IMG/VR virus record: IMGVR_UViG_3300011754_000016
Span: 1 to 64,000 of that record
Length of the DNA: 64,000 bases
From: an uncultured virus (IMG/VR IMGVR_UViG_3300011754_000016)
Taxonomy: Duplodnaviria; Heunggongvirae; Uroviricota; Caudoviricetes
Direction: 5' to 3' (one strand)
Below are positions 1-58,676 of the stretch, piece by piece. The position numbers were made by a program, and so were the translations under genes. The notes below the pieces were generated by a model. It searched no databases and was not told the DNA's origin. It saw only the letters and a program-made list of their open reading frames with translations. Numbering within the stretch: position 1 is the stretch's first letter; each line of letters starts with the position of its first letter.

Positions 1-2121
1 TTAGCTGGCTGCATCAAATAGCTTTGGGTTTACCTCAATAATCTTTTTGCGCCCATCGACTGATTGCTTAATGTGTCCTTTGCTTTCCAAGTTATCAAGC
101 TCACACTGTAGCAACTTGTTATTTTTCCGCATAGGCTTAGGTGCGCCGTTGAAAACATCAGTACGGTTCAAAATGGCGGGCTTTTTGTCTTTTGCCTTAC
201 TGACAAGCCAGCTACTTAGCATCTCACTGTCGTTCTGCTCACCTGTGGGCGTGGCATCAAGGTAGCGCAAGCGCTCACTGGTGGAATACTCAACCAACAA
301 AAAGGCGCGGGTTATATCATCTTTATTGATGACTTTACGCCCATCGAAAAAGGCTATCAGCGCGGCTATTCGGCTTGCATTTTCTGCCATTCGTGACGCA
401 TAGGCTTTTAGGTATTCCAAAGCTTGCCCGCTGGCTTGGCGGTTCTCAATCGCTTGCATCTGCTCGTAAAAGGCTTGTTCGGTGGCATCGTCTGCCCAGC
501 GCATCTTAATGCGTTCAGGCTGCCCTTGCGCTGTTGTAGGCTCATTGGCTGGGGTTGGGTCAAGTAAGCTTTGACAGCGTGACCAATAGGCGATTAGGTC
601 AGGATTATCATTAGGGTCATCACGGCGGCGGCTGGCATCGTTCCAAACGCGCTGCCCTCGCAAATCAGGCGGGCAAGCAATCAAAGCCCTTGCTAAAAAG
701 CCTTGCCCATTCATTAAAGGGTCAGTTAAAGCGGGTTCTAAGACGACACGCTGACCTTGTAAAAGTAGCGTCATGCGAACGTCATAAGCATCAGTTTTTG
801 GGGTAGCGAACGCTGATTTTTGTGACCTTACCCGCGATACCTCGCCATCACTATAAAGCGTGGTCAGTGATGATAAGGCATTGCCAGCGGTATCACCTTT
901 CATCGTATGACCGTTGAAAAACTGCCCTGCTTCGTCTGTTGTCCATGATGCGCTATTAATTTGACCGCTGATAAACATATCTAAAATAGGCTCTATGGTG
1001 GCTTCTTTAAACATGGTTTTAGGGTTCAAGGGCATGGGGTTTGCTTCTTTAAAGTCTGCAAGCTCCTTACCTTTAAGCCCTGCCTTATCGCTTTCCCAAA
1101 CGTCTATATCATCTAAGTATTGTTTGTATTTTTGGCGCTCATGCTGCTCTATCTTAAAGTGGGTCAGGCTCATGGCTTGAGTTTTGCCGCTACCGCTTTC
1201 CCCCTCCGTGATTAAGATAAGGCTTGCTGGCATGAAGCCATGACCAAAGGGCGCATCAATAAAGCGCTGCCCCATGTGCGCTAGTGCCCCTAAAACGCAT
1301 TGCCCCGCCATTGCTTGCGGTACTTGAGCATAATAAGCCACCCATTCAATGACACGCCGTAGCAGCCCATTAAAGGCGTGAATAGGGTAATCAGTGGGTT
1401 TGCTTGGGTCATTGGCTAAAGGTTCGGGGTCTGCCCACCCTGTCGCTTGCAGCTCTACTATGTCAGCCTCATTTTGAATGTCATCAAAGGTATTGCCACC
1501 ATCAAGCATGGTCACAATATCAGCTACGGTTATCCAAGCTTGAGCGTTCACGCCTGCCAATAATTTTTTGGTTCTATGATCATCAAGGGTCATTGGCACA
1601 ATAACGCGGCGATCATTGCCCCAATGATCAATAGCATCTTTAAACTGTTGGCGGTTGCGCTTTATGGGGCTGACAATGATAGTCTGCTTTAAGTGTACCG
1701 TGTGGCTGTAATATTCAAGCGCATAATCTAGGTCATTAAAGGCGATAACTTCGCTATTTGGGTCGTTCTCACCAATGATGATTGCGGCGTGGTCTGCATA
1801 GGTAATGACGGTAGGCAGTTGATTGCTGTTTGGCTGATAGAATACCGCGCCTATCGTTTCATCATGCTTATCAGTCAAGGCAAGCGCAATGCTGCCCGCT
1901 GTCTGTTCTATCTTGCCAGCATTCGCGCCATCGGTTATAGTTAGGTTTGCTGTGATTGCTAGCAGTCGTTCAGGCTCAAGCAAGCCATCAGCTTTTAGTA
2001 ACAAAGCATCATTTGCCAGTTCTTGCCGTGTGGCTGGCTTGAAAGTATGAAGCAAGTCCGAAAAGCCCGCGCCGCCATCGCGGGCTTTTTTCTTGCCTTG
2101 ATTTTGTGGTGTGGTGGTCAT
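1..2121 (-). CDS. DUF3987/YfjI-family replication protein (primase/helicase-associated P-loop NTPase)
   Basis: 706 aa; Walker A GESGSGKT, Walker B-like WTTDEAG, GFLARAL motif, C-terminal winged-helix-like segment. Confidence 0.8.
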   Translation of the reverse strand: MTTTPQNQGKKKARDGGAGFSDLLHTFKPATRQELANDALLLKADGLLEPERLLAITANLTITDGANAGKIEQTAGSIALALTDKHDETIGAVFYQPNSNQLPTVITYADHAAIIIGENDPNSEVIAFNDLDYALEYYSHTVHLKQTIIVSPIKRNRQQFKDAIDHWGNDRRVIVPMTLDDHRTKKLLAGVNAQAWITVADIVTMLDGGNTFDDIQNEADIVELQATGWADPEPLANDPSKPTDYPIHAFNGLLRRVIEWVAYYAQVPQAMAGQCVLGALAHMGQRFIDAPFGHGFMPASLILITEGESGSGKTQAMSLTHFKIEQHERQKYKQYLDDIDVWESDKAGLKGKELADFKEANPMPLNPKTMFKEATIEPILDMFISGQINSASWTTDEAGQFFNGHTMKGDTAGNALSSLTTLYSDGEVSRVRSQKSAFATPKTDAYDVRMTLLLQGQRVVLEPALTDPLMNGQGFLARALIACPPDLRGQRVWNDASRRRDDPNDNPDLIAYWSRCQSLLDPTPANEPTTAQGQPERIKMRWADDATEQAFYEQMQAIENRQASGQALEYLKAYASRMAENASRIAALIAFFDGRKVINKDDITRAFLLVEYSTSERLRYLDATPTGEQNDSEMLSSWLVSKAKDKKPAILNRTDVFNGAPKPMRKNNKLLQCELDNLESKGHIKQSVDGRKKIIEVNPKLFDAAS

Positions 2122-2264
2122 CTATTCCCCCTTAGCTGATAATGTGGCTCGTTGCAGTCGCTATAGTGCGGCTGCTTATGCTTTGGCGCTCGATTGTCAC
2201 GGTACTGCTTAAAGTGACGTTTGCGTTTGGCATACTTACGGCTTGGCTTTGAATAAGTTTTCAT
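2118..2264 (-). CDS. Small basic hypothetical protein (48 aa)
   Basis: MKTYSKPSRKYAKRKRHF...; start overlaps the upstream stop and the stop overlaps the next ATG (translational coupling); too short for the ORF track. Confidence 0.45.
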   Translation of the reverse strand: MKTYSKPSRKYAKRKRHFKQYRDNRAPKHKQPHYSDCNEPHYQLRGNR

Positions 2265-2863
2265 TATTCACCTGCCTTGCCGTATGACGTTTTGGCCAAG
2301 GTTTCGTTGATGTTATCTAAGCTTAAATAAAATAGTTCTGACCAGGTATTGGCGCTTTCATGAGCAAGTCTTGCCAATGATTTAGCGGTAAAGCTTTCCA
2401 CCTTTTCATAATGAATAAGCCCTAATACTTGCGCTATATCGTCCAAGGTGTCAGCGGCATGTTTAATATCACAAGCAAAGCTTTTCATGTTAAAAGCTGA
2501 AAGCATGATGATCTCTTGATCATTATCATCTGTGGTATCAATCACCAAAGGAGCGGGCTTGCCAGCACCCAATAGCGTTGCAATCGCTTGACGGTTGGCG
2601 GGCGTGTTATGGAATAGCGAGGGCTGAAAGTCGTCCGTTTCTGTGGAATCGGAACGCACCAAATAGCCGTTTTTATCGTAGTAAAAATAACTGCCCTCAA
2701 AGCTGATTGCCAAAAGGTCGCGCAAGCCGTGAGGGTCATTTAGCAGCATAAAGGGCTTTGGGCTTAATGACGGCGCAAGCACAGAAATACCCGCTTTGAA
2801 TGGGGTAGGCGCGTTGGTAGCAGCGTTTTGGGTATTTGATGGGGTGTTGATTGACTTAGGCAT
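2264..2863 (-). CDS. Satellite hypothetical protein
   Basis: 199 aa ORF with a GGAGG RBS that overlaps the C4 target repeat. Confidence 0.7.
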   Translation of the reverse strand: MPKSINTPSNTQNAATNAPTPFKAGISVLAPSLSPKPFMLLNDPHGLRDLLAISFEGSYFYYDKNGYLVRSDSTETDDFQPSLFHNTPANRQAIATLLGAGKPAPLVIDTTDDNDQEIIMLSAFNMKSFACDIKHAADTLDDIAQVLGLIHYEKVESFTAKSLARLAHESANTWSELFYLSLDNINETLAKTSYGKAGE

Positions 2864-3362
2864 GATTATGCCCTCCTAACAAGTTTTGAGTGAAAGCCAC
2901 GCTATACAATGAAAGTATAGGGTGACGGGTCTTACTCTCGGTCTTGTTAGAAACCGCCCCGCATATTCGCCTTTCGGCTGTTCTATTTTGCAGCGTCAAC
3001 CCGTCATAATCGGCTGGCAAGTGATTTGCCATAGATATGATGGTTTGCCCCCTTGAGGCGTTTTTAAGCGCGTTTGGGGCTGTACTTGATGGCATAGTGA
3101 CAGCTTGAGAGGCTGCACCATTATCAGGCACAAAAAAAGCCAAAGGGTTACGGATTGGCTGTCCGCTAACAAGTTTTGAGAGGCGTTCATCATAACCGCT
3201 TGCGCCATCGGTTGCAATCGCTTTAAGTGCTTGCTGACAGCCTACAATTGAGCAAATCACGCTAAGCCCTGCCAGCCATGCAATAGCGATTATAAGCAAT
3301 CTGCCTTGATTGGCTGAATGGGTTTGCGCCTTGTCAGTGGTTTTAAGGTCTTGATTAATCAT
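2856..3362 (-). CDS. Ash/Icd-like immunity-region protein
   Basis: 168 aa; RNPLAFFVP motif; overlaps a C4-like RNA and its two targets, as in P4/P1-type immunity regions. Confidence 0.55.
   Translation of the reverse strand: MINQDLKTTDKAQTHSANQGRLLIIAIAWLAGLSVICSIVGCQQALKAIATDGASGYDERLSKLVSGQPIRNPLAFFVPDNGAASQAVTMPSSTAPNALKNASRGQTIISMANHLPADYDGLTLQNRTAERRICGAVSNKTESKTRHPILSLYSVAFTQNLLGGHNHA
2923..3006 (-). ncRNA. C4/CI-like antisense RNA
   Basis: Closing stem TGACGGGT/ACCCGTCA, a GCC-GAAA-GGC hairpin, and a CGGT..ACCG hairpin whose loop CTAACAAG is complementary to CTTGTTAG in the 15-bp direct repeats at 2876-2890 and 3166-3180. Confidence 0.7.
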
Positions 3363-3591
3363 TATTGCCCCCGTTTACTTCGCTTGCATCTATCCAATAG
3401 CGCTTAAATCGTTTGCCATTGTGTTTGATAAATTCATCTTGAATGGCAATACCATTAGCGCGTAACTCGCTGATACGCTGGGGTAAGCAAGTCATTTTGT
3501 ATAAGCTAAAAGCTTGCATACTGGTAATAGACTTGCCCGCCATCAAGTGCGCCATGATGATTTGATGATAACTTTGCCGTGTAGTGGTCAT
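3355..3591 (-). CDS. Winged helix-turn-helix DNA-binding protein
   Basis: 78 aa; GKSITSMQAF...RISELRANG motif. Confidence 0.75.
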   Translation of the reverse strand: MTTTRQSYHQIIMAHLMAGKSITSMQAFSLYKMTCLPQRISELRANGIAIQDEFIKHNGKRFKRYWIDASEVNGGNND

Positions 3592-3593
3592 CG

Positions 3594-3872
3594 CTAAGCC
3601 TCGCTTGCCGTGTGGCTCTCAAGCCATGCTAAAACGTCAGCGTTACGCCATGCGCTCATGGTAGGGCTCAACTTCACTGGGGCAGGAAAGCGCCCATCTT
3701 TTGACCATTTCCAAAGCGTGGTGCTGCCAAAGGGCAGAAAGGGCAAAAGCTGGCTTGCGCGGCTCATGCCTTGCGGTGGCAAGTAAGGCATATCGCCATG
3801 ATTTTCGGCGGGGCTGTCAGCGCTTGGCTGATTGAAAGCGATTACTTCGCTATTGGTGGTAGGCTGTGCCAT
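3594..3872 (-). CDS. alpA: AlpA-family regulator / excisionase
   Basis: STTLWKWSKDGRFPAPVKLS..SAWRNADVLAWL signature. Confidence 0.9.
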   Translation of the reverse strand: MAQPTTNSEVIAFNQPSADSPAENHGDMPYLPPQGMSRASQLLPFLPFGSTTLWKWSKDGRFPAPVKLSPTMSAWRNADVLAWLESHTASEA

Positions 3873-3950
3873 CTGTATAACTCCATGCTATGCCGTAACG
3901 GTCTGCTACGGCTTACATGGGCTATGTTATGTAGTAGGATATTATGCAGC

Positions 3951-3987
3951 ACCCTAAATGGGGTAAAGTCATACCCTAAATGGGGTA
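3951..3987. repeat. Two 15-bp direct repeats ACCCTAAATGGGGTA upstream of alpA (likely operator)
   Basis: Exact copies at 3951-3965 and 3973-3987 (22-bp period). Confidence 0.7.
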
Positions 3988-4009
3988 TAGGTTTGTTTTG
4001 GGGTGGTTA

Positions 4010-4573
4010 TTAATTAGGTTTAGGGCGCTTCTTTTTGGCATCGGCTAGCATTAGATTTGCATCTCTAAAGCGATTTTCTAAAGTGGTTTTGCGCTGTCCT
4101 TGAATGTCCTTATCTAATATATCTCCTATTATGGTGGCTTGGCTTTGAAATGGTGCCTTACCGTCTATACCCTTTGGCGTGGTCATTAACTCCAATAGCA
4201 AGCCTATAGTGGTTTGATAACTCTTTTCGGTATGGTCATTAAGCTGGCTGGTAGCATTTTCCTGTGATGGCGCTGGCTTGTTGTTATTACAGTCTATCAA
4301 TACTGCTTCATCTAAGCTGTCGTTAAACCTCTCGAGCGTATAGCCTTTATCCGCTAAGTATCTTTTAACTTCATCTACTAAAATTAATCCCTCATCATTA
4401 AAAACTTTAAGCTTGCCTGCCTTTATACTCGTTTCAATCATTTTGATAATCTGTTTATATCCTCTATTACCAATATTGAGTGAAATTGGGTCTAAGTCGC
4501 AAACTAAACAAGCTATTTCATTTGGAGTAAATAAATCTAAATCTACTAAATAGCTTTGATGCTCTCCTAACAT
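4010..4573 (-). CDS. Satellite hypothetical protein, possible regulator of alpA
   Basis: Likely ATG at 4573 (MLGEHQ...), directly after a structured leader; helical C-terminus. Confidence 0.65.
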   Translation of the reverse strand: MLGEHQSYLVDLDLFTPNEIACLVCDLDPISLNIGNRGYKQIIKMIETSIKAGKLKVFNDEGLILVDEVKRYLADKGYTLERFNDSLDEAVLIDCNNNKPAPSQENATSQLNDHTEKSYQTTIGLLLELMTTPKGIDGKAPFQSQATIIGDILDKDIQGQRKTTLENRFRDANLMLADAKKKRPKPN

Positions 4574-4672
4574 AATCCACACCCCTACACCCTTTAATAA
4601 AAATAGGTGCAAGGCGCTGACAGCATTAGGGTGTGGTTTGCTGTCGTTCGGGTAATTACTCCTAGCCTTGCA
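4571..4672 (-). ncRNA. Structured pseudoknotted 5'-leader RNA, copy 1
   Basis: P1 TGCAAGGC/GCCTTGCA; GGCTAGG..CCCGAAC; P3 GACAGCA/TGCTGTC with a CCACACCC loop complementary to two GGGTGT tracts beside the ATG. Confidence 0.6.
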
Positions 4673-4678
4673 AAGTTG

Positions 4679-5026
4679 TTACGCCATGCCCTCACTTTTG
4701 ACAGCATTGGCAAGCGTGTCGGTTATCCACTGATTAAGGCTCATGCCGTGGCTGGTAGCAATCGTGCTGACTTGCTCATGCAACTCGCTTGGCATACGGG
4801 TTACAAATTTACCTGAAAAGGATTTGTAAGGGGTAATACCTTGCTCTTGGCAAACGTCCAAAAAGGCTTGTAGTGACTGCCTGCCCTCATGTTCTAAAGC
4901 GGTGATGCTGTCACCATAAAAATCAGCGCCACCGTTTAAGCCAACAAATTCACCACGGAATAGGTCTATTTCAGGGTCGTATTGAATGATGGCTTTATGG
5001 TCATTAATCATCATAATATTTTGCAT
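4679..5026 (-). CDS. hicB: HicB antitoxin
   Basis: YDPEIDLFRGEFVGLNGGADFYG plus C-terminal RHH FSGKFVTRMPSELH...SLNQW. Confidence 0.92.
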   Translation of the reverse strand: MQNIMMINDHKAIIQYDPEIDLFRGEFVGLNGGADFYGDSITALEHEGRQSLQAFLDVCQEQGITPYKSFSGKFVTRMPSELHEQVSTIATSHGMSLNQWITDTLANAVKSEGMA

Positions 5027-5028
5027 GA

Positions 5029-5328
5029 TTACTCCTTATTATCCGTTGTGGGGGCAGTAGCGCGGGCGTCATCAATAGGGCTATACCCTAAGCTATCTAA
5101 CCATTTGCGAACACTGGCAACCGCGCCCTTATCCGTTGTCGGCTGGGGGTGGGGTCGGTGATAAACTTGAACTTCACCATCTAACACTACCGCCACTCTT
5201 GAGCCTGCCCTTTCGCTAACTTCTGCCCCTAATGCGATAAATAGGGCTTCAATATCTGCCCATTTTATATTTGCTGATATAGGCTTAGTAAATATAATAT
5301 TGAGTGTTTTTAAGTGCTTACGCTGCAT
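5029..5328 (-). CDS. hicA: HicA toxin (mRNase)
   Basis: IKWADIEALF..GSRVAV..HRPHP motif; lies upstream of hicB. Confidence 0.92.
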   Translation of the reverse strand: MQRKHLKTLNIIFTKPISANIKWADIEALFIALGAEVSERAGSRVAVVLDGEVQVYHRPHPQPTTDKGAVASVRKWLDSLGYSPIDDARATAPTTDNKE

Positions 5329-5351
5329 ATCTTATCCTTAGCTTATGTTTT

Positions 5352-5380
5352 ATTATAGTACCACTTATTGATACTAACAA
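5352..5380 (-). promoter_or_regulatory. hicAB sigma70 promoter with an internal inverted-repeat operator
   Basis: TTGTTA-N17-TATAAT on the minus strand; TAGTA-N11-TACTA overlaps the spacer. Confidence 0.6.
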
Positions 5381-5443
5381 TAGCTATTTAGTATCGCAAT
5401 TGGATTGACAGCATTTGCTATCAAAACTGGTGGTTTAAGCAAT

Positions 5444-5555
5444 TTAGGCAAATAAAGGCAACTTAGGCACGCTTAGGCATTGGGTCTTAATGACTTAATC
5501 CTTTGCCATATAAGGGCTAGACGCTATTTAGGCAGTTTAGGCACGTTTTTAGGTA
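5444..5555. repeat. TTAGGCA iteron-like repeat cluster (possible satellite ori)
   Basis: Exact copies at 5444, 5463, 5473, 5528, 5537; variants at 5454 and 5549; about 10-bp phasing beside AT-rich DNA. Confidence 0.65.
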
Positions 5556-5654
5556 AGTATAAATAAGCCTTATATTTATATTGATGCCGTAAACATAGCC
5601 CCTACCTGTATTTAAAAAGCTATAAAAATTAAATATAGGTCTGCCATTGGCGGC

Positions 5655-6893
5655 TTAGCCTTGCTTTTGTGCCTTTGGTTTAAAGTCTGCATGAATGACG
5701 TTATCCAGCTTGCCCGCATGGGCGCTATCAATAAAGTCTGCCCATTGGTTCATCATGTCAATGCGATAAGGCAAGTGCTGTGCCCCATTGTAAGCGGCGC
5801 TAATCTTATTCTCTCTATCGTGGGCTAATTGCAGCTCAATAGCTTCATGCTTAAAGCCTTGTTCATGCAGCGTGGTGCTGGCAAGCCCTCTAAAGCCGTG
5901 CCCTGTCATGCGCCCCTTATAGCCCATGCGCCATAGGGCAGTAATAAAAGCGTTTTGGCTGTATGGCTTGCGGGTCGATGGATTAAAGAAAACATACTTA
6001 TCCGAAAAGCCAAAGGCGCGTATCTGCTCAAGAATGGCAATCACTTGCGGCGCTAGCGGTACGATATGCACCCGCCCCGCTTTCATCTTATCGGCGGGTA
6101 TTGTCCAAAGGCGGCGCTTGTAGTCAATCTCGCACCATTCCATGAAGCGTAGCTCACTGGTTCGCACAAACGTGTAGCACATCACCCAAAAGCCCAGCCT
6201 TACCAAAATATCACCCTCATAGGCGTTAATGCTTTGTAGCAGCTTTGGCAGTTCTTGCACGTTGATGCGCTTATGGTTCACGGTCTTATGAGGCTTGATA
6301 GCGGCGGCAAGGTCAATGGCTGGGTTATTTATTGCCAAGCCGTTTCTAACGGCGTGTTTGAATATCTGCCCTATCTCTCTAATGGTACGCTTTGCCATTT
6401 CATTAGCGCCGCGCTGCTCTACTGCTTTGCCAATGGCAAGCACATCAGGGGCGGTTATATCGTCTATATTAAGATGACCAATAGCGGGCTTTACATCGCG
6501 CAAATAGGCGGAATAGTTGCGGCTAAAGGTACTTTCAGCAAGGTAGGTCTTGCGCTCGCTATACCACTGTTGAGCAATGGCATCAAAAGACTTTGTGCCA
6601 TCACTATCAGCCTTGCGCCGCTTCTTATCCTGCTTTGGGTCAATGCCTTGCGCTAGTAAATCTTTTATTTGTTGGTTGCGCTGGCGGGCATCAGCAAGCC
6701 CCATTGCGGGGTATTTGCCAATGGTCAGGCTTTGGCGCTTACCATTAAAGCTATAATCACTTACCCATGCCTTACTGCCACTATGACGCACCCAAAGGCG
6801 CAAGTTATCGCCATCGCTATATTTATCAGGATTATTAGGGGTGCAAGCGCTTGATGGCTTTAGGCGTTTGATTTGGCTATCAGTTAAGGGCAT
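5655..6893 (-). CDS. int: P4-like tyrosine integrase
   Basis: 412 aa; arm-binding N-terminus (DGDNLRLWV..LTIGKYP); catalytic R (VRTSELR), HGFR, QLAH, AYN. Confidence 0.95.
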   Translation of the reverse strand: MPLTDSQIKRLKPSSACTPNNPDKYSDGDNLRLWVRHSGSKAWVSDYSFNGKRQSLTIGKYPAMGLADARQRNQQIKDLLAQGIDPKQDKKRRKADSDGTKSFDAIAQQWYSERKTYLAESTFSRNYSAYLRDVKPAIGHLNIDDITAPDVLAIGKAVEQRGANEMAKRTIREIGQIFKHAVRNGLAINNPAIDLAAAIKPHKTVNHKRINVQELPKLLQSINAYEGDILVRLGFWVMCYTFVRTSELRFMEWCEIDYKRRLWTIPADKMKAGRVHIVPLAPQVIAILEQIRAFGFSDKYVFFNPSTRKPYSQNAFITALWRMGYKGRMTGHGFRGLASTTLHEQGFKHEAIELQLAHDRENKISAAYNGAQHLPYRIDMMNQWADFIDSAHAGKLDNVIHADFKPKAQKQG

Positions 6894-6940
6894 GACGGTA
6901 TATTTCCATGACGGTATAAAATATACCGTAAAATATACCG
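6891..6940. repeat. Integrase arm-type binding repeats
   Basis: CATGACGGTATA twice, then AAATATACCG twice in inverted orientation, at the integrase start. Confidence 0.6.
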
Positions 6941-7006
6941 CAATTTTGCAAGGTTTGCCACGTATTAGGGCGGCTTATGGTGTAGGCTGATTGCCTTACA
7001 AGCCGC

Positions 7007-29194: not shown

Positions 29195-29252
29195 GTGGTA
29201 GGTAAAGAAAAACCCCGCCATTTAATCGGCGGGGTTTTCTTTGTGCTTTATT

Positions 29253-29310
29253 AATGACATGGTAATTATGTCATTGACGCAATTATAAAATGACATTATT
29301 ATAGTGTCAT
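29253..29310 (+). promoter_or_regulatory. Two ATGACA-N9-TGTCAT operators upstream of the Arc-like gene
   Basis: Inverted repeats at 29253-29275 and 29290-29310, flanking TTGACG. Confidence 0.7.
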
Positions 29311-29333
29311 CTATATTTTTTTAAGGATTAGCA

Positions 29334-29819
29334 ATGACTGATAATATTGGACGAATTAGAAATCAAGATGATTGGAAACGCACTCAAGTAAGAATACCTC
29401 AAGAGCAATATGAGGCAATTGCTGAGCACGCCAGTGAGAATGATTTGTCACTAAATTCTGCAATGATTGAACTTATGGATAAGGGTTTAACAGTAGATGG
29501 TAGATACGCAACACCATCTAATATTAGAATCCACCGCTTAAAAAATGGCATCAAGCGCGTTGTTTTTGGCAAATTGGTGAATAGTTTTGATATTGATTAC
29601 ACCAATCCAAACTTAACAGAGCTTAAAGGTGATATAGAGTATTGTCTTGAGATTTTGGCGAATACTGGCTCTTTAAAAGATCGTTTTATGTTTTTTAATA
29701 AAAAAGTCGGTGTATTTCAAGGTGGGAGTCATCTTGATGTTATCGATGAGGGTGTCGGCAGTCTTAATTGGCTAATTGTAGAAGATCACCACACGCAGGA
29801 ATATATTGATCAGTTATAG
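29334..29819 (+). CDS. Arc-family (RHH) DNA-binding protein with an unknown C-terminal domain
   Basis: RTQVRIPQEQYEAIAEHA..SLNSAMIELM. Confidence 0.75.
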   Translation: MTDNIGRIRNQDDWKRTQVRIPQEQYEAIAEHASENDLSLNSAMIELMDKGLTVDGRYATPSNIRIHRLKNGIKRVVFGKLVNSFDIDYTNPNLTELKGDIEYCLEILANTGSLKDRFMFFNKKVGVFQGGSHLDVIDEGVGSLNWLIVEDHHTQEYIDQL

Positions 29820-29908: not shown

Positions 29909-30388
29909 TTAAGCTACTTTTGGGTCACCATTAACCCAAGCTTCCTGAAATTTGCATTCAGCTGGCGGCTTCCTTTCTGCAATAAATGTTCTATCCTTCA
30001 CATCCGCCCAATTCATGTTATTTTGCGCCCAATCAACAATTTCAAAATCGCTATTCAAAAACAGAGGTATGGTGTCATTTGTTAAACTATCGGAAAAACT
30101 ATTGTTAAACTTACTACCTGCATAATGATTTGCTCTATGCCGCGCAATCACCTCAACAGGTAGGACATAAGTACGACCATCAGGCATGTCAAGGTAAAGC
30201 ATTTTTTCAAACAAAGGCGTATCGTAAACTTCTTCGCAATCCCAAATATCAGAAGTATTTACGTAAGGCTTAATATCACGTTCCCAAATATCGCAAGCAG
30301 CATCTTCGCTTTCGGCTTCGACAACCTTTGTTGCAAAAGCATGGTCGCCATCATGATTCTCTAACCATTTAATTCTATATTTCTTCAT
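29909..30388 (-). CDS. Acidic hypothetical protein (moron)
   Basis: 159 aa; own promoter and structured leader. Confidence 0.7.
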   Translation of the reverse strand: MKKYRIKWLENHDGDHAFATKVVEAESEDAACDIWERDIKPYVNTSDIWDCEEVYDTPLFEKMLYLDMPDGRTYVLPVEVIARHRANHYAGSKFNNSFSDSLTNDTIPLFLNSDFEIVDWAQNNMNWADVKDRTFIAERKPPAECKFQEAWVNGDPKVA

Positions 30389-30484
30389 ATCCTCAACACC
30401 TATTCAGATAGACACCCTAAGATGTTGGCAATCGGGGGTGTAATCCGACTTTCGGGAGCGACCCTAGCCAACCCTCAAATTATA
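30386..30484 (-). ncRNA. Structured pseudoknotted 5'-leader RNA, copy 2, with an extended -10 promoter
   Basis: TGCTATAAT; P1 GTTGGC/GCCAAC; GGCTAGGGTCGCTCCCGAAAG; P3 AGTCGG/CCGATT with an ACACCC loop; downstream GGGTGT and GGTGT next to the RBS. Confidence 0.6.
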
Positions 30485-30530
30485 GCACAATCAAGCGGTT
30501 ACAAGGTCGATAAACGTAGTGGTATGGCAA

Positions 30531-31157
30531 TCAATAAGGCGAAAAATCCGCCACCGCAAACAACTGCCCTGCCACGGCAACCGCCACGCCCATATCTTCG
30601 GTTTCAACGCCAACGGCAACTTCAGGAACGATATTCCAAGGCACAAGGCGCGAAAGCGTTGGTGTTAGCTCTGACAATTCCGCAACGTCAATGTCTGAAC
30701 TGAGCTTGATGCGAATGCGGCTGGTCAAAAACCGACTACTGGCTGCGCTTTCGCTAAGATAATTTGGGTAATCCGCTGAGCGCGCTTTTGAGTGCCAAAG
30801 CCTGATAATTTGATTTTGATTGGGGTATAGCATATCAAGCACAAATTGCAAAAACGCCAGTCCGCGAGCGCTTGCCATCGCCTCCCAGTTGGCGTAAATC
30901 ACCGCCATAAGAGTATCGGCTAAACTGTCCTCACGCCGCAATACCGCCAAGCCGTTGAGCTTGGTGAAGCGTTCAACCACCGTTCGGCTGCCCTGCCACG
31001 GCGCACCGTAGTTATAGATGTCGTTTAGCGCATTGATTTGCTGCTCTTGAATGACCTTGATAAACACGCCTGCCATCGCGCGCTCAAGCTCACCCGCTTT
31101 ATGCGTATGAGCGATGGGCGCTAAAAAATCAGCTGCACTTAATACTGGATAATCCAT
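30531..31157 (-). CDS. Baseplate wedge protein (gpI-like)
   Basis: 208 aa; RGLAFLQFVLDMLY, FLTSRIRI; follows the J-like gene. Confidence 0.55.
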   Translation of the reverse strand: MDYPVLSAADFLAPIAHTHKAGELERAMAGVFIKVIQEQQINALNDIYNYGAPWQGSRTVVERFTKLNGLAVLRREDSLADTLMAVIYANWEAMASARGLAFLQFVLDMLYPNQNQIIRLWHSKARSADYPNYLSESAASSRFLTSRIRIKLSSDIDVAELSELTPTLSRLVPWNIVPEVAVGVETEDMGVAVAVAGQLFAVADFSPY

Positions 31158-58147: not shown

Positions 58148-58363
58148 TCAAACCCTATCAATCGCGCTGTTTTGCCAATCACTCCCATCGTATTCATCGC
58201 CCAGATGGCACACCCCTCTAGGGCTGCCGAAAAACTCCTCAAGACCCTGCATGAGTTCGGACTTGCTTTTGTCATAACCCCAGACCCAACCGTCAGCGTC
58301 AATAGCCGCACTTTTAACCCAATCCGGCGCACCATTAAAAACATCTTGCGTTAACTTTTTCAT
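58148..58363 (-). CDS. Small phage hypothetical protein
   Basis: 71 aa; APDWVKSAAIDADG motif. Confidence 0.65.
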   Translation of the reverse strand: MKKLTQDVFNGAPDWVKSAAIDADGWVWGYDKSKSELMQGLEEFFGSPRGVCHLGDEYDGSDWQNSAIDRV

Positions 58364-58370
58364 AATTCCC

Positions 58371-58676
58371 TCAACACTTATAAATTGAGTCGCTAACCGA
58401 CCCCAAATTCAAATCAGCACAATCCGTCAATGCGCCACCTTCAGCATCCCAGCGGTGGCTATCGCCTTCGGTATCGATCTTGCCATCCTCACCGATTAGG
58501 TAGGTGCAGCTATAGCGCTGCAAATCATGGTTGTAGCTCATACCAACACAAAGCACACCATCAACCGTAAGCGCGATATTTTTAAAGTATGCCCAAGCAT
58601 TTGGCTTGTTGGCTCGCGCAGCATCACGCCGTTTGAGCCACTCTTTTTGACCAGCCGTAAAAGCTTTATCGCTCAT
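58371..58676 (-). CDS. Hypothetical protein
   Basis: 101 aa in a coupled early-gene run. Confidence 0.6.
   Translation of the reverse strand: MSDKAFTAGQKEWLKRRDAARANKPNAWAYFKNIALTVDGVLCVGMSYNHDLQRYSCTYLIGEDGKIDTEGDSHRWDAEGGALTDCADLNLGSVSDSIYKC

Follow-up and report, generated by a model that had tools for sequence, protein, structure and literature searches.

The preQ1-II and SAM-II riboswitches are pseudoknot platforms that hide or free the Shine-Dalgarno (SD) sequence. In the phages P1 and P7, the c4 antisense RNA is encoded in the leader of its operon and acts on ant in trans. The loops of c4 are complementary to two sets of sites, one at a ribosome-binding site (RBS) and one upstream. 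In T4-type phages, the homing endonuclease genes I-TevI, I-TevII, I-TevIII, segB and mobE have hairpins that sequester the RBS, and such accessory or selfish genes are under tight translational control (PMC2988022, section 12). A further RNA, the int-alpA motif (Rfam RF02996), stems from a comparative screen by Weinberg et al. 2017 (NAR 45:10811, PMC5737381). The main text of PMC5737381 does not mention int-alpA, and the supplement may describe a pseudoknot or the gene context. A text search of the available literature found the name only in an annotation table and as a gene-order label for satellites, with no function stated, and did not find the accession RF02996. Here we analyse 64,000 nucleotides (nt) of DNA from an uncultured virus (positions 1 to 64,000 of IMG/VR record IMGVR_UViG_3300011754_000016; hereafter the window), in which a folded RNA leader of ~90 nt precedes an open reading frame (ORF) of 159 amino acids (aa). 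Judged from sequence comparison, it may be the int-alpA-type 5' leader of a small 'moron' cassette in the tail cluster of a myovirus-like prophage that serves as a cis-acting translational switch or rheostat, a reading that we hold with moderate confidence.

Coordinates are positions in the window, and the leader is read on the minus strand. R1 and R2 denote covariance models built from 7 and 54 sequences, respectively. The leader and its surroundings are as follows.

30552-30538, minus strand: terminator-like hairpin with a 6-pair stem and a T-rich tail at the end of the upstream ORF 30531-31157 (consensus match only)
30487-30479, minus strand: extended -10 TGCTATAAT, read from the sequence, with 6 nt between it and stem P1
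30472-30467, minus strand: 5' strand of P1, GUUGGC, whose outer pairs covary; predicted transcription start (+1) at 30473-30472
30466-30465, minus strand: junction UA, preceding hairpin 1
30464-30454, minus strand: hairpin 1, GGG-UCGCU-CCC (Rfam alignment, R1)
30453-30449, minus strand: junction GAAAG, conserved in the Rfam consensus (CGAAAA)
30448-30432, minus strand: hairpin 2, UCGG-AUUACACCC-CCGA (R1, R2, covariation)
30441-30436, minus strand: segment ACACCC of the hairpin-2 loop, read from the sequence
30431-30430, minus strand: junction UU, preceding the 3' strand of P1
30429-30424, minus strand: 3' strand of P1, GCCAAC (R1, covariation), followed by AUCUUA
30417-30412, minus strand: site 1, GGGUGU, putative decoy partner of the hairpin-2 loop by complementarity (candidate pseudoknot)
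30411-30400, minus strand: tentative small hairpin CUAU-CUGA-AUAG between sites 1 and 2
30401-30396, minus strand: site 2, AGGUGU, likely SD, of which GGUGU (30400-30396) is complementary to the loop segment ACACC
30394-30390, minus strand: GAGGA, with a U on each side and 1 nt from the AUG
30388-30386, minus strand: start codon ATG of the 159-aa ORF, read from the sequence

We compared the leader to int-alpA. An Rfam search of the whole window gave no family at or above its cut-off. A permissive search of 30300-30600 (301 nt) reported int-alpA with 21.9 bits (E 0.019), below the gathering cut-off of 35.8 bits, and this match is unlisted in the wider Rfam searches of the whole window and of the leader's own record. 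The alignment runs end to end, from 30474 to 30415 on model positions 1-71. CUAG, CGAAAG and UUG of the window are in register with the conserved consensus CUAG, CGAAA and UG, and the tail UUAGGG aligns with the consensus uaAgGG, where GGGUGU is complementary to the loop ACACCC. Both RNAs have a closing stem, CUAG, a short hairpin 1, the CGAAA junction, a hairpin 2 with a 9-nt loop and UG; in both, the 3' tail ends in an AGGG that matches the loop, and both occur in phages and mobile elements. The three-way junction is present in the window with 6 base pairs (bp) in P1, 3 bp in hairpin 1 and 4 bp in hairpin 2, as are the junction letters and the AGGG-like 3' tail. The sub-family of the window differs in having GGCUAGGG...UUGCC where the Rfam consensus has GcCUAGccC...CUGgC. 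Furthermore, in contrast to the integrase or alpA context that gave int-alpA its name, the leader precedes a gene of unknown function in a tail cluster, and the int (5655-6893) and alpA (3597-3872) genes of the window have no int-alpA-type RNA nearby in scans with R1, R2 and Rfam.

The window element scores 69 bits with R1 and 64.1 bits with R2, as is to be expected for models whose training sequences include it. We next consider its relatives. When 20 relatives collected by sequence pattern were searched with Rfam, 8 were reported as int-alpA and the other 12 were not at E <= 1; three passed the cut-off (L012 with 47.8, L043 with 41.8 and L027 with 39.4 bits) and five more scored below it. 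R1 gives the three passing relatives 59.8, 45.7 and 60.1 bits, respectively, and matches all Rfam-reported relatives among the pattern-collected loci. In the other direction, R2 matches the 22 Rfam-derived int-alpA loci in 8 cases at E < 1e-4 and in 10 at E <= 1. Although the window element fails the Rfam score test, it is joined to accepted members from both sides, by R1 and by R2. We thus conclude from these alignments that it is a diverged sub-family member of int-alpA.

Close copies of the leader are found in cultured phages. With blastn, two unrelated phage records match it: MT836429 over 30487-30384 with 87.8% identity (E 6e-24) and Psychrobacter phage vB_PmaS_Y8A over 30470-30385 with 88.6% identity (E 1e-20). 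The genes flanking the leader have no blastn match in either record. The fourth copy is L010, and a fifth, 5'-truncated copy is found in L007. In the alignment, the homology of the sister copies runs from the -10 to the ATG. The five copies (~88% identity) head four unrelated ORFs, where Y8A and L010 have the same ORF.

More distant relatives were collected with the gapped pattern TGGCTAGGG..GAAAG..TTGCCA, which matched 87 IMG/VR stretches. After removal of duplicates and unstructured matches, 44 distinct instances remained, the window and L007-L010 included. A looser pattern matched at least 120 stretches of bacterial genomes. Among the 80 of these stretches with DNA, 23 match R1 (E <= 0.01), and 21 of these score at least 34 bits. 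These R1 matches represent Alpha- and Gammaproteobacteria, Desulfobacterota-type lineages, Planctomycetota, a metagenome-assembled genome of Clostridia, Acidobacteriota, NC10, Myxococcota and Poribacteria. The other 57 of the 80 stretches, including all archaeal ones, were discarded as chance pattern matches on the basis of R1. For an independent sample, 151 Gammaproteobacteria genomes were searched with the Rfam model itself, and 12 of them contain int-alpA above the cut-off. For the other leader sub-types, no match was found in cultured phages or E. coli genomes. The invariance of the junction letters across phyla suggests that they either maintain a fixed tertiary structure or bind a universal partner. 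For 52 of 53 parsed instances, an ORF of at least 40 codons was called within ~115 nt downstream on the same strand. For 47 distinct loops, the assigned start is found 23-83 nt past the core.

The comparison of the family members supports the helices. In the 54-sequence alignment, which is fitted to the model and in which the search patterns had fixed the three inner pairs of P1 as well as the letters of the junctions, standard pairs are found in 95.9% of cells versus 71.7% in shuffles. The covariation score is 0.624 versus 0.145 in shuffles and was reached by none of 500 shuffles. When the partner columns are slid by 1-3 positions, pairing falls to 38-49%. Compensatory changes are present at all four pairs of hairpin 2 and at four of the seven pairs of P1, whereas hairpin 1 is neither supported nor contradicted by covariation because its GGG/CCC is nearly invariant. 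We conclude that a conserved, covarying three-way junction (P1, UA, hairpin 1, GAAAG, hairpin 2, UU) lies at the predicted 5' end of the message.

The hairpin-2 loop has two potential partners in the tail. We searched for contiguous complementarity to the loop in the tail before the SD window (site 1) and in the 18 nt that end 2 nt before the start codon (site 2). Both sites are present for 38 of 47 distinct loops, compared to 12.1% for swapped loops (n = 2162), and none of 2000 permutations reached 38. In a smaller run with 29 loops, none of 1000 permutations reached the observed value for site 1, and the same was found for site 2 separately. The Rfam-derived set, in which 17 of 23 matches could be parsed automatically to yield 15 distinct loops, gives a similar picture: both sites are present in 11 of the 15 loops, compared to 22.1% of 208 control pairs, and 11 was reached by none of 2000 permutations. 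In 32 of the 38 cases, the loop bases engaged by one pairing overlap by at least 80% with those engaged by the other, and the two pairings would thus be mutually exclusive. In the median, site 1 begins 7 nt past P1 and site 2 ends 6 nt before the start codon. Furthermore, the loop and its two sites co-vary in their letters: UCCUAA occurs with UUAGGA and UAGGAG, UUCCGCAG with UGCGGAGC and UGCGGAG, and CGCUUA with UAAGCG and AAGCG. For the window, the estimated duplex energy is -10.0 kcal/mol for loop and site 1 and -6.7 kcal/mol for loop and site 2. In addition, the segment CAACAUCU from the 3' strand of P1 and the tail is able to pair with AGGUGUUG (-9.7 kcal/mol).

The region around site 2 may itself be structured. 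Between sites 1 and 2, the minus strand of the window reads CUAUCUGAAUA. The small hairpin in this region has no covariation among the sister copies, and an alternative to it is a pairing of UAUC (30410-30407) with GAUA (30391-30388). Across the family, a strict test found the whole of site 2 inside the apical loop of a local hairpin for 12 of 45 leaders, compared to 12.7% in the flank-shuffled control, which is a weak result. The last 26 nt together with the AUG fold modestly better than shuffles (mean z = -1.11, with z < -1 in 23 of 45). This points, to a modest degree, to a local hairpin that often holds the SD. A sub-family with L024, L073 and L093 has a strong terminator-like hairpin and a U-run between sites 1 and 2, ~40-85 nt past the core, and in L093 an ATG after site 1 is a candidate opening of a short upstream ORF. 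This sub-family may be a transcription-attenuating variant.

A transcript that starts 6-7 nt past the extended -10 would begin at 30473-30472, where P1 begins at 30472. There is no usable -35 hexamer upstream of the extended -10. The promoter call thus depends on the extended -10 alone, and the promoter is for this reason unlisted in a two-hexamer promoter scan. The terminator-like hairpin that ends the upstream gene (30552-30538) fits with a separate transcript start for the leader. In the family, a hexamer with at least 5 of 6 matches to TATAAT lies 6-16 nt before GGCUAG in 29 of 53 instances, compared to 4.2% of 1050 control positions. Its modal distance to GGCUAG is 8 nt, which places it ~5-6 nt ahead of the first P1 pair, and the TG of an extended -10 is found in 15 of the 37 instances that have at least 4 of 6 hexamer matches, A2 and T6. 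An RNA start at the base of P1, at a position predicted from these hexamers, is thus a family trait. In many of the Rfam-derived loci L219-L244, we observed a recurrent ...(A/G)GTTT in the 5-12 nt before P1, which is preceded by a CATAAC- or TGATCA-like hexamer. It may be a promoter variant or a part of the motif.

The initial annotation had listed TGCTATAAT, ACACCC, GGGTGT, GGTGT and GAGGA, and all are found on the minus strand where it had put them; its +1 near 30473 at P1 also agrees with the start predicted here. It had taken GAGGA as the RBS. However, GAGGA lies only 1 nt from the AUG and is thus too close, and AGGUG is retained in all four sister copies, which carry AAUGA or AAUAA where the window has GAGGA. 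AGGUG, which is 7 nt upstream of the AUG, at the canonical distance, is therefore the likely SD, and GAGGA is probably not a functional RBS. The two alternative partners of the ACACCC loop, also proposed there, turn out not to be peculiar to the window, as the complementarity recurs across the family. From these features, the initial annotation derived a true switch in the 5' untranslated region; the structured leader starting at the promoter and the two loop partners are supported, whereas the switching itself is putative.

We propose the following mechanism. The loop ACACCC of hairpin 2 would act as an anti-SD that chooses between the decoy site 1 and the SD at site 2. The decoy pseudoknot between loop and site 1, which would be transcribed first and be the more stable one, would leave the RBS free (ON). 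If the decoy pseudoknot were weakened or the junction remodelled, the loop would capture the RBS and initiation would be blocked (OFF). The balance between the two pairings would thus set or switch the translation of the cassette gene. That loop pairing alters translation, which way the switch works and that it has a trigger are all inferred.

When comparing the leader to the known systems, we find similarities to each of them. As in the T4-type hairpins of PMC2988022, the gene is a mobile phage gene, the SD would be masked by RNA and the position of the promoter would decide on the structure. HNH genes are frequent cargo of int-alpA-type leaders, as are homing endonucleases in the T4-type case. 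The T4-type hairpins are simple and local and, unlike the leader, do not have a conserved junction, a decoy or a pseudoknot. They are relieved by a late promoter inside the hairpin, whereas the promoter of the leader starts at the base of the whole structure.

With preQ1-II and SAM-II, the leader shares the loop-to-3'-tail pseudoknot near the RBS and the conserved unpaired junction letters; in contrast to them, the partner in its pseudoknot would be a decoy and the SD a second, competing partner, and its cargo has no metabolic theme. With c4, it shares the location in a leader and a loop with two target sites, one of them at an RBS. However, c4 is cut out as a free repressor and has one of its site sets upstream, and the Rfam family C4 does not match the leader.

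We next describe the genomic setting. According to PHROG and Pfam scans, the leader lies inside a myovirus tail and baseplate module. The comparison with related phages delimits an insert with the following features.

30530-29122: accessory insert of 1,409 nt between two conserved tail genes
29909-30388, minus strand: 159-aa ORF behind the promoter and leader, which head the insert; start ATG at 30388-30386
29334-29819, plus strand: Arc-like ORF, convergent with the 159-aa ORF
29209-29238, plus strand: terminator-like hairpin; by eye, a hairpin with a U-run is also present on the minus strand

The gene upstream of the insert is common to seven related IMG/VR phages, and its distance to the tail-tube gene is ~80 nt in L002 versus 1,409 nt in the window. 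In L001, L006 and L007, other cargo is present in the homologous gap, which is bordered by the phrog_4620 gene on one side and the tail-tube gene on the other; the gap of L006 contains a TGGTATAAT promoter, a mini-ORF and a terminator and nothing else. The differing cargo at one spot points to a hot spot for accessory inserts, with one insert headed by the leader. The terminator-like hairpin at 29209-29238 adjoins facing promoter-like sites (29274-29319) between the Arc-like ORF and the tail-tube gene, and the region 29201-29330 is the source of spurious Rfam matches to Thr_leader, MicC and rnk.

The 159-aa protein has 12 unnamed homologues, no Pfam family and PHROG matches only to families of unknown function, among them PHROG 17928 (511 positions), whose C-terminal end is matched by the C-terminal 100 residues. 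Its AlphaFold model is confident (predicted local distance difference test score 85), and Foldseek found no PDB match to it at E <= 0.001. The closest cultured phage by the baseplate protein is Acinetobacter phage vB_AbaM_ABMM1, with 43% identity. Based on this similarity and the leader copy in the Psychrobacter phage, we infer a Moraxellaceae host.

Across the family, the cargo consists of accessory or selfish genes. Among 50 downstream ORF fragments, we found seven HNH-type endonucleases, five of them over the Pfam cut-off, two Resolvase and two KilA-N matches, and one each of Prim-Pol, PAPS reductase-like, HTH_36 and an NrdD fragment; for 35 of the 50, no family was recognised. In the related phage L007 (3141-3912), two tandem cassettes are present at the same insertion site as in the window. 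The first combines a promoter and a leader of a different sub-type, whose loop is CGCUUA, with a gene for a 198-aa protein that has no Pfam match and is HNH-like by eye only. The leader of the second is of the window type, but only its part from AAAGUCGG on is intact; a further gene follows it, and the stop codon of the first gene overlaps the broken junction of the second leader. This nested arrangement hints at the rather improbable possibility that the DNA of the leader is a homing site for endonuclease cassettes. Besides L007, no half-leader downstream of an endonuclease gene was found in the loci examined.

Several observations weigh against a translational switch. Folding of the single sequence gives a minimum free energy of -23.3 kcal/mol with z = 0.55, and 143 of 200 shuffles are as stable. 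The minimum free energy fold (-23.2 kcal/mol) differs from the three-way junction, whose energy is -15.1 kcal/mol alone and -22.6 kcal/mol when enforced. As the single-sequence fold gives no support, the case for the leader rests on comparison. Here, the search patterns fix the junction letters in the main sample, the alignments A3 and A6 are fitted to the model, and the start codons come from heuristic calls, of which a few are wrong. The pseudoknot energies are duplex estimates only, and site 2 of the window pairs over just 5 bp. Furthermore, the loops are generally anti-SD-like, and a match to an SD window is thus also found for 41% of swapped loops. Of the two sites, site 1 is the stronger one in 19 cases and site 2 in 11, with equal strength in the remaining 8, and there is no uniform default state; since the strengths vary among members, the family may set differing translation levels, as a rheostat, and not one default. 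Lastly, the cargo lacks a common metabolic theme and is too diverse to point to a trigger.

Some of these observations would also be explained by a static leader. In such a leader, a single invariable structure made up of the three-way junction and the site-1 pseudoknot would stabilise the 5' end of the mRNA or insulate the RBS from any sequence beside which the mobile cassette inserts, site 2 would resemble site 1 as a by-product of their common likeness to an SD, and there would be no switching. The predicted transcript start at the first P1 pair is as expected for a stem that protects the 5' terminus, the loop pairs more strongly with site 1 than with site 2 in the window and in 19 of 38 cases, the module moves among unrelated genes, and the diverse cargo reveals no trigger. 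However, loops are more complementary to the SD window of their own leader than swapped loops are (0 of 1000 and 0 of 2000 permutations), and this complementarity tracks the idiosyncratic flank of each SD, which is not accounted for by a by-product. Furthermore, site 2 is equal to or stronger than site 1 in the other 19 of 38. We thus regard a static leader as unlikely. A different function would follow if the junction domain were released by processing or terminated as a free-standing small RNA (sRNA) that, similar to c4, acts in trans through the hairpin-2 loop on its own message or on others. Rfam lists int-alpA with the type 'Gene; sRNA', each loop has two target-like sites, and L024, L073 and L093 have their terminator-like hairpin between the sites. 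We consider such an sRNA highly improbable, because the same-strand ORF follows in 52 of 53 instances with starts at 23-83 nt past the core (47 loops), no terminator is found after the element in the window, the pairing sites are leader-specific and in cis, and the C4 family of Rfam gives no match.

The conserved letters might also be maintained at the level of DNA, with GGCTAGGG, GAAAG and TTGCC kept because cassettes are exchanged at this joint, or because the endonuclease genes that often follow the leader use it as their homing target, and with a secondary role for the RNA. The homology of the sister copies, which starts at the -10 and stops at the ATG, is consistent with this, as is the HNH-like cassette of L007 that has its own leader and lies directly upstream of a partial window-type leader. 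HNH-type genes are also the commonest recognised cargo (7 of 50, five over the Pfam cut-off). On the other hand, no family was recognised for 35 of the 50 cargo fragments and nucleases are a minority among the rest, just one half-leader was found among the loci examined, and the compensatory changes in hairpin 2, in P1 and in the loop and site pairs indicate a constraint on the RNA. We therefore see little chance that the element is mainly a DNA-level joint. Compared to the cis-acting switch or rheostat proposed here, a more far-reaching and rather improbable possibility is that int-alpA leaders are portable sensor-switches of mobile cassettes across many phyla, where the junction CUAG/GAAAG/UUG would bind a universal ligand or factor that stabilises the decoy and licenses translation. 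They would then form a novel class akin to riboswitches, in which decoy, anti-SD and SD are the three parts of the logic, and their cargo includes homing endonucleases, recombinases, primases and morons.

The initial annotation had labelled the leader as a second copy of an element shared with a satellite and considered co-regulation of the two. We found a single copy. A short-word blastn search revealed no second copy in the window, a pattern search, exact or with 3 mismatches, matched only the leader itself, and with filters off the next-best matches of R1 and R2 in the window score 13.4 and 13.5 bits and are both plain hairpins. The whole 76.7-kb record also has a single match to the leader. 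Two candidates for a second copy were rejected: a pattern match at 58218-58232 that is not a copy, and a collinear likeness at 58358-58424, whose local alignment score of 34 compares to a 99th percentile of 32 (2130 tiles), where chance tiles reach 35-40. The satellite-like island contains the following features.

1-7000, minus strand: satellite-like island, adjoining prophage lysis and head genes
5655-6893, minus strand: integrase
4679-5328, minus strand: HicAB-like toxin-antitoxin pair
3597-3872, minus strand: AlpA
3358-3591, minus strand: HTH_39 protein
4-2121, minus strand: DUF3987 protein
2916-3005, minus strand: sRNA-Xcc1-like RNA, the only structured-RNA candidate of the island (42.5 bits versus a cut-off of 53, E 4.6e-5 in 7.5 kb)

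The RNA of the island resembles sRNA-Xcc1 (RF02221), which literature listings treat as a trans-acting sRNA of integrons. Like the leader, it has a closing stem, two hairpins and a loop that is complementary to an SD: inspection by eye shows 10 complementary positions, including one G-U, between UUCUAACAAG in the loop of its hairpin 2 and CUUGUUAGGA, and CUUGUUAGGA lies at the SD of the next ORF, which starts at 2863. However, it belongs to a different family, as it has no match to R1 or R2 and no common sequence with the leader, and RF02221 has no match at 30300-30600. The two RNAs thus have a design in common and not a sequence. Since the island between 1 and 7 kb contains this different RNA and shares no element with the leader, the idea of co-regulation has no support from a shared element.

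For genome annotation, our results imply that the Rfam cut-off misses a whole sub-family of int-alpA, as only three of 20 clear members tested pass it. The window presents a member of this orphan motif directly at what is predicted to be a strong promoter. Together with its relatives, it provides a testable mechanism, in which one loop has two exclusive partners and one of these is the RBS, and a recurring biological setting, namely accessory and selfish phage genes. If the mechanism holds true, the leader would be a compact natural part for tuning translation levels, and mobile cassettes would carry their own translational control, independent of the context in which they insert.

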